From the IMG/VR virus record IMGVR_UViG_2721755728_000008: a stretch of 40,851 nucleotides of DNA. One strand, written 5' to 3'. Position 1 is the stretch's first letter. Each line of letters begins with the position of its first letter. Made by a program: the position numbers. This DNA comes from a virus. Lineage: Duplodnaviria; Heunggongvirae; Uroviricota; Caudoviricetes. Below, piece by piece: positions 24,001-27,000 of the stretch.

Positions 24001-27000
24001 TTTTTTTGACCGCGCGTTTCCGGACGTATTCTGTTCTCCTGTCCCTTTATATCGTCGGAATACCCGCCGCTCTTCAAATCCCATTCCCAACTCAGAATGT
24101 AGTCTGTTGACCGCTTGTTTTATTTCGGTCAGGTTCACCGGTGAAACCGGAGTCCGGCGCGCCTTACGCAAACACTCTGCTCGTTTCTGTGCCGCCACTT
24201 TTCTTTTCTGGTCATCACTTAGCTGTACCATCACTTTTGCCCATCGTTCAGCTGCTCTCCGGTACAGTCCTTTTTTCTCCAGACATTCTGCCACGTGATC
24301 ATGTAGCATAAGTGACCTCCGATTATCTACAGACTGCCATCCTGAATTTACCTTCCCTTAATGAAATAACAATAAAAAACAAACCACGCAAAAACAATAA
24401 AACAACACACAAAAAAAACTAAATAATAAACAAAAATAATCACCTTATTTTATTATTTTTTGAGGGAGCAATTACTGAACAAAAAACGCTGACTATATAC
24501 TCAAAACCAAACAACTATTCTGCCAATCAGGTATCATGGCAACACACGGAATTACCGTGTTTTTGCCTTCTCTGCCCATACAATACGGGCATATACTTCA
24601 TTCTCTATTGTAATATTTCTATCCATGTGCCCCACTCCATTTACCTGTAAATAATATTCAAAATATTTATCACAGAAATCGTTTTTGGCCATGAACTGAG
24701 CACACTATAAAGTCCGGAACTGACTCTTTGTTAAATTACCTTAACGTTACCAGTAACACCTTCATAACAAAACATCACGGTATACACTGGGTACGGATAT
24801 ATTCCTGTGCTCCTTCCAGTTGCTTCTGCATTGCCATCAGCCGTTCTCTGAGGATGAAATAATCCCGTTCAGCGGTGTCTGCCAGTCGGGGGCCGGTTGC
24901 ATTATCCACGCCGGAGGTGCCGGTGGCTTCACGCACGGTACCGGAGCAGGTGGCGTTGATCCGCAGGCGCTTACGACCAGCGGCAACATCAGCACGCAGA
25001 GTTTCATTTTCAGCTCTCGCATCGGCTAATTCCCTCGAGTATCTGGCATCAAGTGCAGCGACATCACGCTGGCGTATCTGCATATCAGTAATTGTCGCGT
25101 TCGCCAGCTCCAGCTCACTGGCTTTTTTATCGCGCTGCTCTTTGTAGATGATGGCGTGATCACGGTAATGATTCAGCCCCAGACTAAGCGCACCACAGGC
25201 CACCAGCAGGACAATGATAACCACGCACAGAACACGGTTCATATCACCACCAACGGATTGCCCAGACCAGAACAGCAATGGCCACAATACGAATGGCAAA
25301 AGCTGCCGCTCTTGTTAAATCCAGACTGGCTGGCGTCTCCACTTCAATGCCTTTCATAATGGACAACCTCAGAAAGAATCTTTTATACTTCCTCACAGGG
25401 AAAGTACCTCCCTACCCATAATTTCTCCCTTGCCTTACTCAAGGTCAGAAAACACAAAACCCCGCTTGCTGCCAACAAACGGGGTTTTTACTTTTATTCA
25501 CTTAGGTTTTACCAGTTTTCAGGATTTCGTGTTATCCACCCGCGTTGGCCAACGTCATTTTTCAGGAAAATATTCTGCTATCTGTCGATGTCCCAGCACG
25601 CCAGCGCGCTCTCCTGGTCACGCCGTGAGACCTGACCGTAGCAATTATTTGAACGGATACGGCAGTCTCTGCCACCGTCCTTAATCCACCAGCGAATCGC
25701 CTCACAGGCACCTTTTCGATCGCCTGCATTAATTCGTTTATAAAACGTCGACGGGAAGCACTTACCGGGGCCAATGTTGTACGGACAGAATGACGCGATC
25801 CCCGCTTTCTGGGGTTCGGTCAGCGGCACCCGGATGTTTTTCTCCACCCATGCCAGCGCCTTGTCACGTTCGATGGCATTAACCCGGTCGCATTTTTCCT
25901 TTGACAGCTTCATGCCAGGAATAACAGGCTTACCATCCACCAGAATGGCACCACGGCAGATGGTCCAGATCCCCGCACCATCACGGTATGCCGTGGTGTG
26001 GTTACCTTCCTTTTCATCCAGAAACTGGTCGAGGATTTCAGGCGCAGAAGCACCTGCACCAATCAGCGCCAGAACGGCAGCCGACAGGCCGTATTTTATT
26101 TTTTCGTTCATGGGGATTTATCGATTTCTAATCCCTTGATATGTTAGGTATATAATCCAACACTCATGGTCGCTCTCATAAACATATCCCTTGAGACGCA
26201 GCAGATTACAACAAATGAAGCCATATAAATGAACAGTAAAGAAAGTTTGCGCAGAAGATTTTTACAACTAATGACAGAAAACGTTAAATCAGAGTTACTT
26301 CTTCTGATGGCAGATAATAACGAAGCAACAAGCAGCATTCTTGCAGACCCTTACGGTAAGATCTCACATAAAACGCTGGATATTATTACCACAACATTAA
26401 CACCGCTGATGCTTCAACGGCTGAAACATAATATCAACGCATGGGTTAATGAAGAATTAAGTCCTCCCTGCTTATGGGATTCTCGTTACGCATGTCAGCA
26501 AAAAATGCGAATTTTCAACTTACTATCACCAAAGCTCAGGTAGCCATAAAATCCTGCCCTTCATGGCATACAGGATTTCAATGGAATCACAATGACCAAC
26601 TCTTGCACAGCTGTATCCCTGACTCCCCGACAACTCAGATTTTCAGTATCTGCTGCTATCTAAAGAGAAAGCGCACAAATGCAAGGGTCTTTCATCACGT
26701 CCTGTTATTGATTGCCTGTGACCTTTTCTCACCTCATGGAACGTTTTTTCAGTTAGAAATATTCATTTTACAACCAGTTCGTATTGTTTATTCATCGACT
26801 ACTCTCCCCGCGCCACCTTACGCTTATCTTCTTTAATCTTGAAATAAAGGTTAGTCAGATACGTCAGCAGGCCAAACAGCAGACTCCCCAGCACACCTAT
26901 TGCCACCCACTGGGACGGAGAGACTTTGTCCAGCAGTTGCAGTAACCAGTATCCCGTCCCTACCGCTGACGTGGTGTATGACACACCTGTTGTGATTTTT

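Follow-up and report, generated by a model that had tools for sequence, protein, structure and literature searches.

In the viral record IMGVR_UViG_2721755728_000008, a stretch of 40,851 nucleotides (nt) that was analysed as a whole and is called the window below, the endolysin gene R and the spanin gene Rz are separated by a spacer that is probably, though by no means certainly, a self-contained, horizontally exchanged accessory cassette of the moron kind. According to the explanation favoured here, the cassette encodes a tail-anchored inner-membrane protein that is made late and is coupled to Rz, and it is preceded by a hairpin that is overridden by the antiterminator Q. The window carries an Escherichia coli lambdoid prophage with its late operon on the minus strand, and the cassette, read 5' to 3' on that strand, consists of an A-tract, a GC hairpin and a U-tract, a leader with a Shine–Dalgarno (SD) sequence and an upstream open reading frame (uORF) of eight codons, and the small gene, with the Rz start 1 nt past its stop. 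The R stop codon occupies 25578-25580 and the Rz ATG lies at 25242, which gives a gap of 335 nt, in agreement with the approximately 330 bp reported in an initial annotation made by reading the sequence. The cassette is a real but fairly ordinary phage accessory insertion, an uncharacterised member of a familiar class.

The small gene and its product

The initial annotation placed in the gap a hydrophobic open reading frame (ORF) of 37 codons with a GAGG SD and a stop 1 nt before Rz. The ORF is present and hydrophobic, and both its GAGG (25370-25367, 9 nt 5' of the ATG) and its junction with Rz were found, the TGA at 25246-25244 being followed by one base and the Rz ATG (TGATATG). This short form (25244..25357, minus strand; 37 aa from an internal ATG, MKGIEVETPASLDLTRAAAFAIRIVAIAVLVWAIRWW) is called by PGAP as the hypothetical protein WP_000675931.1 and corresponds to ECs1094 of O157 Sakai. 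The length is the part of the description that probably has to be changed, to 50 aa from a GTG at 25396, as the frame stays open and conserved for 13 codons further 5', up to that codon.

Relatives were sampled from 160 IMG/VR loci and fall into two subfamilies, A1, of the window type, with 50 aa and the ending RWW, and A2, with 60 aa and the ending ALKS. At the position of the 50-aa start, 27 of the 30 distinct A1 nucleotide sequences have GTG, two have ATG and one has TTG, all of them valid starts. In relatives of 43-58% identity, the first 13 residues follow the pattern x-Y-x-K-x-F-x-L-R-x-S-M, and this conservation at the amino-acid level indicates that the long form is coding. PHROG 4493 is matched by the 50-aa form with E = 1.4e-24 over positions 1-54 of 56 and by the 37-aa form with 5.5e-16; the protein also matches PHROG 1115 (2.1e-11) and PHROG 3246, and all three PHROGs are of unknown function. 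Most likely, the ORF starts at GTG 25396 and encodes 50 aa (25244..25396, minus strand; MRKYKRFFLRLSIMKGIEVETPASLDLTRAAAFAIRIVAIAVLVWAIRWW), and the ATG of the 37-aa form appears to be a second conserved start inside the gene. All lineages examined retain this internal Met and, 9-12 nt before it, TTGAG(G/A), and in GC-rich relatives the TTGAG(G/A) site holds the only AGR arginine codon of the gene; the 37-aa start may thus be used as well. The current annotation of the small gene would accordingly be 13 codons too short, and the corrected gene model is a practical gain.

The leader (25393..25430, minus strand) contains the SD AGGGAG at 25430-25425, the uORF from ATG 25419 to TGA 25393 and a second SD, GGGAGG, at 25412-25407. 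The uORF stop overlaps the GTG start of the long form (GTGA). A block GGAAATT(A/G)TG is conserved in all A1 relatives, and in the 60-aa subfamily its ATG is the start of the ORF itself.

With regard to the product, the long form has a cationic N-terminus and one C-terminal transmembrane helix, and ends in RWW. The best 19-aa Kyte–Doolittle window, with a mean of 2.10, covers residues 30-48 of the 50-aa form; seven Lys/Arg against three Asp/Glu precede the single helix, and only WW follows it. The small protein is thus predicted to be an N-in, tail-anchored protein of the inner membrane.

Conservation of the ORF across related prophages, which the initial annotation had left to be checked, is evident from the ratio of non-synonymous to synonymous divergence (dN/dS), which amounts to 0.04-0.06 between the window and the most diverged A1 group with an overall dS of ~1.2 and synonymous sites nearly saturated, as well as from the 160 loci mentioned above and from 673 E. 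coli genomes with a full-length gap. Of 5426 complete E. coli genomes, 2036 have a match to part of the R–Rz gap and 673 to at least 80% of its length. The amino-acid changes are conservative exchanges among V/I/L/M or between A and V. Judged from these substitution patterns, the small ORF is a genuine gene under strong purifying selection. A chance ORF beside an ordinary R terminator, with nothing functional about it, would suit the shortness of the reading frame and its annotation as merely hypothetical; this explanation is already refuted and hardly deserves any credence, given the dN/dS values, the near-saturated synonymous sites, the homologues down to 43% identity in other phage types and a hairpin that tracks the ORF rather than R.

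Synonymous variation is unevenly distributed along the gene, affecting 24 of 31 degenerate codons in codons 17-50 and three of 13 in codons 3-16 (Fisher p = 0.0016). The resulting island of low synonymous change (25349..25390, minus strand, codons 3-16) has a dS of 0.14-0.32, compared with 1.8-3.3 for the remainder, and may reflect two overlapping translation-initiation regions.

The relatives retrieved in protein searches are mainly from E. coli, with a few matches named Citrobacter or Yersinia, and form only 13 clusters at 50% identity among 1.84 billion proteins. The small protein had no match in searches of Pfam, NCBIfam, the PADLOC defence models and PDB sequences. At least 673 complete E. 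coli genomes, O157:H7 among them, have prophages with this gene, yet neither Pfam nor NCBIfam contains a family for it. A literature search for ECs1094 and WP_000675931 returned no paper, a survey of Shiga toxin (Stx) phage lysis cassettes does not describe these small ORFs, and the literature on small lysis-cassette membrane proteins and on antisense RNAs in lysis genes yielded nothing specific.

A terminator-type hairpin within the late operon

The strong hairpin with T-runs on both sides that had been noticed in the gap proved to fold on both strands, with a U-tract on each. This bidirectional hairpin of the intrinsic-terminator type (25445..25497) has its stem-loop at 25456-25488, and the U-tracts extend to ~25445 on the minus strand and to ~25497 on the plus strand. 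On the minus strand, which is the sense strand for the lysis genes, 15 bp, six of them GC pairs, form the stem and 3 nt the loop; the U-tract directly 3' of the stem is UUUUGUGUUUU, the sequence 3' of the hairpin reads UUUUGUGUUUUCUG and the tail is given in the feature list as GTGTTTTCTG. The minus-strand fold of the 81-nt context reaches -25 kcal/mol (z = -3.2), a value that 0 of 200 shuffles equalled, and the plus-strand fold (z = -3.7) is followed by UUUUUACUUUUAUU. Across 15 sequence variants of the hairpin, 92% of cells are paired, and two pairs are changed on both sides. The hairpin lies outside translated sequence, beginning 90 nt past the R stop and ending 37 nt before the uORF start, and the untranslated segment after R (25489..25577, minus strand, starting GCAGAATATTTTCCTGAAAAATGA) is conserved and keeps it free of ribosomes. 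In its sequence, the hairpin shows all the features expected of an intrinsic terminator.

A terminator inside a lysis operon had been regarded as unexpected in the initial annotation. Nevertheless, the region 23500-28000 contains 12 terminator-like sites, compared with 3.9 +/- 1.7 in shuffles, and two further strong sense-strand terminator-like hairpins are found in the late operon, at 29259-29241, after a small RNA (sRNA)-like element, and at 27086-27060, just before the holin gene S, which brings the strong sense-strand terminators to at least three. In lambdoid and Stx phages, Q-modified polymerase overrides intrinsic terminators in the late transcripts (PMC7547250). With a late operon downstream of the Q gene and other strong terminators in it, a terminator in the cassette is therefore not surprising. 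The related proposal that the hairpin isolates the expression of Rz/Rz1 can hold for non-antiterminated transcription only.

As a separate observation, the hairpin just before S belongs to a pair of strong, convergent terminator-like hairpins that lie between S and the esterase gene (27060-27086, minus strand; 27259-27288, plus strand). Its stem, GCCGTCAG...CTGGCGGC, resembles that of the cassette hairpin of a distant relative, L171, GCCCCGTCAG...CTGGCGAGGC.

The hairpin and the small gene move as a unit

The hairpin accompanies the small gene well beyond the window. Of the 159 loci for which 150 nt or more of upstream sequence were available, 154 have a hairpin of the type A-run / C3-4G...CG3-4 / T-run 31-86 nt 5' of the start codon. 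The genes that precede it vary, comprising the lysozyme R of the signal-arrest-release (SAR) type, an M15 peptidase endolysin, a 188-aa protein, a 116-aa protein and the antirepressor ant, and the loci with the M15 endolysin carry holins of the families Phage_holin_8 and Phage_holin_3_7, as in phiP27-like phages. The gene 3' of the small ORF is either Rz, in lambdoid and Stx-type phages, or a 60-aa lipoprotein of PHROG 7528, in phiP27-type phages, and it starts 1 nt past the stop (TGAyATG) in 79 of the 79 A1 loci scored. Since the hairpin stays with the ORF irrespective of the preceding gene, it is part of the cassette and not simply the terminator of R.

In the phiP27-type phages (L010, 1655-1837; L089, 2483-2671), which have two holins and an M15 endolysin and no Rz, the lipoprotein after the small ORF has the lipobox LLVGC. 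These phages are without an annotated spanin, and the 60-aa lipoprotein may matter for outer-membrane disruption. A mini-spanin made of the small protein and this lipoprotein was considered and rejected, as the small protein has no periplasmic domain and phiP27 lacks it.

Among the distant relatives, L170 has the small gene after a capsid gene, L171 and L174 have it among BPP-1-like structural genes, L175-177 in a lysis cassette of the phiP27 type and L178 next to a holin of the lambda S type. A GC-rich hairpin, its stem different in sequence, is found in all of them at no more than ~100 nt from the point where the small-protein coding sequence begins. An A-rich run, in most cases AAAAGCxAAA, stands before the hairpin, and (T)TCTG comes after it in the four relatives whose N-terminal region is intact. 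In the metagenomic phage L170 (2423-3403), a tandem array of tiny transmembrane ORFs, two of which end in VRWW, follows the capsid gene, and between these ORFs stand three 48-nt hairpin repeats that are 77-94% identical to the reference copy. A reading of these repeats as integron attC-like sites was rejected on inspection, the core-site consensus being absent.

Such arrangements bear on another explanation, in which the hairpin is conserved for a role other than termination: as an element of RNA processing or stability, for example a stem-loop left at the 5' end of a processed transcript that protects the message for the small ORF and Rz, or as a DNA recombination joint for the swapping of cassettes. 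The distant relatives retain a hairpin flanked by AAAAGCxAAA on the 5' side and (T)TCTG on the 3' side, but show no clear sense-strand U-tract, the three repeats of L170 bound different small ORFs, and the cassette is delimited by an A-tract on one side and by the ATG of the next gene on the other. The versions in E. coli, however, have a strong U-tract on both strands, the signature of a working intrinsic terminator, and no nuclease site or recombinase could be tied to the hairpin with the tools used. This explanation has a slim chance.

The R–Rz junction as an insertion site

The alternative raised in the initial annotation, namely that the gap marks an insertion, is borne out. In the K-12 prophage Qin, the endolysin gene rrrQ and rzpQ overlap, with zero gap, and the hairpin and the ORF move as a unit between different upstream genes. 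In other E. coli prophages, the R–Rz gap holds A2 together with family B (transmembrane peptides of 43-48 aa, PHROG 4906, MSDKLITL...), three or four small ORFs, or ant together with family B. The occupancy of the gap thus differs between prophages, and the comparison of these sequences indicates that the R–Rz gap is an insertion hot spot. The small gene itself is dispensable, since the functional phage phiP27 is without family A. More generally, the endolysin–spanin junction is a place where several families of tiny membrane proteins accumulate.

Related R–Rz gaps (L002, 2077-2640; L003, 2155-2481; L007, 5625-5771) contain family B, truncated family-A paralogues and an unannotated hydrophobic ORF of 31 aa; where family B follows ant, it does so without a hairpin. 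The segment 3' of R stays conserved even where the remaining gap content differs: the first 85-156 nt past the R stop are 81-91% identical in the rows listed and are kept in most of the 320 matching phage records. Directly after the R stop stands the motif GCAGAATATTTT(C/G)CTGAAAAATGA (window 25553-25576, minus strand), which is the same in most of these 320 records. The motif is also found 3' of an unrelated lipoprotein gene in phiP27 (L089, 2685-2708), and it may be a recombination linker.

Sources of transcription and the antisense site

A consensus scan for sigma-70-like promoters found none on the sense strand between R and the ORF in the window, L003 and L010. Without such a site, read-through transcription from the late promoter is the simplest source of the mRNA. 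The sole promoter-like site in each of the three regions lies on the opposite strand, over codons 3-13; in the window it occupies 25360-25389 on the plus strand (TGGACA-N18-TATACT, 10 of 12 matches). It points to the hairpin, and an RNA of ~100 nt from it would cover the uORF, the SD sequences and the start codon.

This site gives rise to the notion of a small toxin gated by an antisense RNA, similar to type I toxin–antitoxin systems. The promoter at 25360-25389 would produce a ~100-nt RNA ending at ~25497 that holds back the membrane protein together with the coupled Rz, or the system would act against related superinfecting phages. Several observations agree with this: the site is the only one in each scanned region and overlaps the same codons in three cassette versions, the plus strand has a good terminator, and the A-rich run before the hairpin is kept in all relatives, even in those with a poor sense-strand tail. 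Furthermore, dS of codons 3-16 is ~5-20x below that of the rest of the gene, the geometry is like that of hok/mok/sok and SymE/SymR, with a small hydrophobic protein, a leader ORF that overlaps the start and an antisense RNA covering the ribosome-binding site, and an antisense RNA within prophage late genes has a precedent in STnc6030 of the Salmonella prophage BTP1 (PMC7067206). Nevertheless, when codons were randomised with the amino acids fixed, an equally good antisense site arose in 17-23% of trials, and for A2 a site with at least 9 of 12 matches in 28-41%. In other lineages, the -35 element retains 3-4 of 6 matches or is missing altogether, and a promoter scan of L170 and L171 found none. 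The consensus scan revealed no dedicated promoter for the protein's own mRNA either. Rfam gave no match at the gap at the gathering threshold and, at E <= 10, only terminator-driven noise (rimP leader, 0.095; ohsC RNA, 1.8). Moreover, no Hfq-bound RNA has been reported at the Sakai gap, and two overlapping translation-initiation regions could also explain the low-dS island. An antisense-gated toxin consequently appears unlikely.

Two identifications of the gap with published RNAs were also rejected. It is not one of the Hfq-bound sRNAs of O157 (EcOnc, AgvB, AsxR), there being no EcOnc peak within Sakai 1184728-1184947, nor is it a Pas sRNA, as these adjoin esterase and holin genes.

A second possibility is a moron expressed in the lysogen from a promoter missed by the scan, with the hairpin as an insulator and a benefit for the host or prophage such as superinfection exclusion or the modulation of host membrane proteins. 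The insertion between conserved late genes with variable occupancy is what such a moron would show, the distant relatives sit at gene boundaries of head and tail operons, some in tandem arrays of tiny transmembrane ORFs, which is typical moron placement, and other accessory loci are nearby in the window (PerC/pch, the esterase and the sRNA). On the other hand, there is no sense-strand promoter-like site between the hairpin and the ORF and no terminator after the ORF, the 1-nt junction to Rz or the lipoprotein gene (79/79 A1 loci) would co-express a lysis gene in the lysogen, and no PADLOC defence model was matched. Lysogenic expression is accordingly as unlikely as the antisense-gated toxin.

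In a more elaborate version, the cassette would be a membrane effector of the lysis programme that regulates itself: isoforms of 50 and 37 aa would arise from the conserved dual starts, and a cis-antisense RNA starting within the first codons and ending at the hairpin would gate translation, including that of the coupled spanin. This is slightly more doubtful still; if it were true, a switch like that of type I toxin–antitoxin systems would reside inside a lysis cassette and be exchanged between phages as a unit.

Proposed function of the cassette

In the favoured explanation, that of an accessory cassette transcribed by Q-dependent read-through, Q-modified RNA polymerase from the late promoter would read through the hairpin during lytic growth, and the small protein would be made alongside the other late proteins. 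Ribosomes finishing the small ORF would re-initiate on Rz, which would amount to translational coupling. In a lysogen, or on non-antiterminated transcripts, the hairpin would end transcription ahead of the genes for the membrane protein and Rz/Rz1 and of the PerC (pch) gene farther downstream, and on the plus strand it would stop antisense transcription entering R and S. The protein would have its N-terminus inside the cell, one transmembrane helix and a C-terminal RWW at the periplasmic face. It is most likely a dispensable inner-membrane modulator that acts late in infection, for example on the timing or efficiency of lysis.

Several points weigh against this explanation. The low synonymous divergence of codons 3-16 is unexplained by the Q read-through model alone, and the tables of sRNAs from Hfq crosslinking in O157 Sakai contain no peak at the gap. 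In distant, GC-richer relatives, the hairpin is without a good sense-strand U-tract. Termination on the sense strand may thus be confined to the versions found in E. coli, and the hairpin may have been conserved for a different task, for instance to stabilise or process RNA, to terminate antisense transcripts or to act as a recombination joint. Many functional relatives, among them phiP27 and K-12 Qin, are without the cassette, which is thus not needed for lysis, and the location of some distant relatives outside any lysis cassette weakens a lysis-specific role.

If the small protein does modulate lysis timing or late membrane events, the release of phage and of Shiga toxin would be affected. 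The cassette as defined here, with its hairpin, leader and ORF, can in any case be used for annotation.

Genomic context of the cassette

The window is 99.5% identical over 14 kb to strains such as C3 (CP010119), which has the collinear arrangement; a previously assumed collinearity with O157 TW14359 proved wrong. The gene order, taken from the 99.5%-identical record, is the Q antiterminator, three tRNAs, an sRNA-like element, the SASA esterase, S, R, the small ORF, Rz/Rz1, PerC (pch) and the terminase, and Q, the tRNAs, the esterase, S, R, Rz and the terminase share one strand.

S (26799-27005, minus strand) encodes a class II holin of the phage 21 type that matches Phage_holin_2_1. R (25578..26111, minus strand), the gene upstream of the cassette, encodes a phage lysozyme of 177 aa with a Gly/Ala-rich N-terminal hydrophobic segment of the SAR type; it matches Pfam Phage_lysozyme (7.6e-24) and the endolysins of PHROG 7 (1e-61) and bears the PGAP label 'lysozyme'. 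The endolysin families of Stx phages are predicted SAR endolysins (PMC8136144). Rz (24775..25242, minus strand) encodes an i-spanin of 155 aa (Pfam Phage_lysis, 8.4e-49; PHROG 13, Rz-like spanin, 4.6e-74). Rz1 (24837..25022, minus strand) lies inside Rz in another frame and encodes a proline-rich o-spanin of 61 aa with the lipobox VVSAC; its Sakai equivalent, ECs_1093, is annotated as a lipoprotein precursor.

The S–R junction (26112-26798) is likewise interrupted, by a 90-aa ORF on the plus strand (26271-26543; PHROG 1853, function unknown; WP_000138558.1), and relatives have at this junction a YdfR-family gene and the same opposite-strand ORF. Just downstream of Rz, a gene for a PerC/Pch-family regulator (23995-24309, minus strand) follows a very AT-rich spacer of 465 nt. 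Between the tRNAs and the SASA esterase, an Rfam match to STnc100 (100.8 bits; 29284-29456, minus strand) has its own strong terminator (29259-29241, minus strand), and its position is the one where prophage sRNAs of the AgvB, AsxR and Pas types have been described in enterohaemorrhagic and enteropathogenic E. coli. The early region contains a hok/sok locus (33772-33946, minus strand; Rfam sok, 114 bits).

In prophage Sp4 of O157:H7 Sakai (L004, 1182130-1189826) and TW14359 (L005), an identical segment from S through R, the small ORF and Rz to pchA is inverted relative to Q, the tRNAs and the esterase, and the inversion is bounded by IS629/IS1203 and ISEc8. Because of this orientation, the segment is not transcribable there from the late promoter. 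The Sakai counterpart of the R–Rz gap is NC_002695 1184614-1184947 (window coordinate + 1159370).

Comparison with known systems

The hairpin resembles tR' of lambda and Stx phages and the downstream terminators that are overridden by Q, in that it combines a GC-rich stem-loop with a U-tract, lies on the sense strand of the late operon downstream of the Q gene and has other such sites in the operon. Unlike tR', it is not the regulatory terminator by the late promoter; it is bidirectional and travels with a small ORF, and both termination and read-through are predictions in the present case.

The cassette as a whole is similar to phage morons such as lambda bor and lom or HK97 gp15, which are small genes inserted at gene boundaries, carried by some close relatives and missing from others, with products that are often membrane-associated and with a hairpin at their flank. 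Classic morons have their own promoter and a terminator downstream of the gene. In the cassette, by contrast, no sense-strand promoter was found, the hairpin is upstream, a downstream terminator is missing and the stop abuts the next late gene.

With regard to lysis accessory proteins, P2 LysA, P1 LydB, the 'releasin' Mu gp25 and the second holin-like proteins of mycobacteriophages offer parallels for a small, dispensable membrane protein encoded between endolysin and spanin genes in the same orientation. The small protein differs from them in its single C-terminal helix with almost no periplasmic part and in having distant relatives outside lysis cassettes. It matches no holin, antiholin or spanin family in Pfam and PHROGs, whereas S matches Phage_holin_2_1. 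As for spanins, only two or three residues follow the helix, there is no lipobox, and Rz and Rz1 are present separately.

The two conserved in-frame starts, each with an SD, and the additional N-terminal positive charges of the longer product recall the dual-start holins (lambda S107/S105, phage 21 S71/S68). However, the starts are 13 codons apart instead of two or three, the protein has one transmembrane helix and belongs to no holin family, and the use of both starts is suggested by their conservation.

Lastly, hok/mok/sok and SymE/SymR share with the cassette a small hydrophobic protein (<~60 aa), an overlapping leader ORF and a predicted antisense unit that runs from the first codons to the upstream terminator. 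In contrast to these type I toxin–antitoxin systems, no promoter for a toxin mRNA and no Rfam match were found, and the antisense promoter is statistically indistinguishable from a by-product of the coding sequence.

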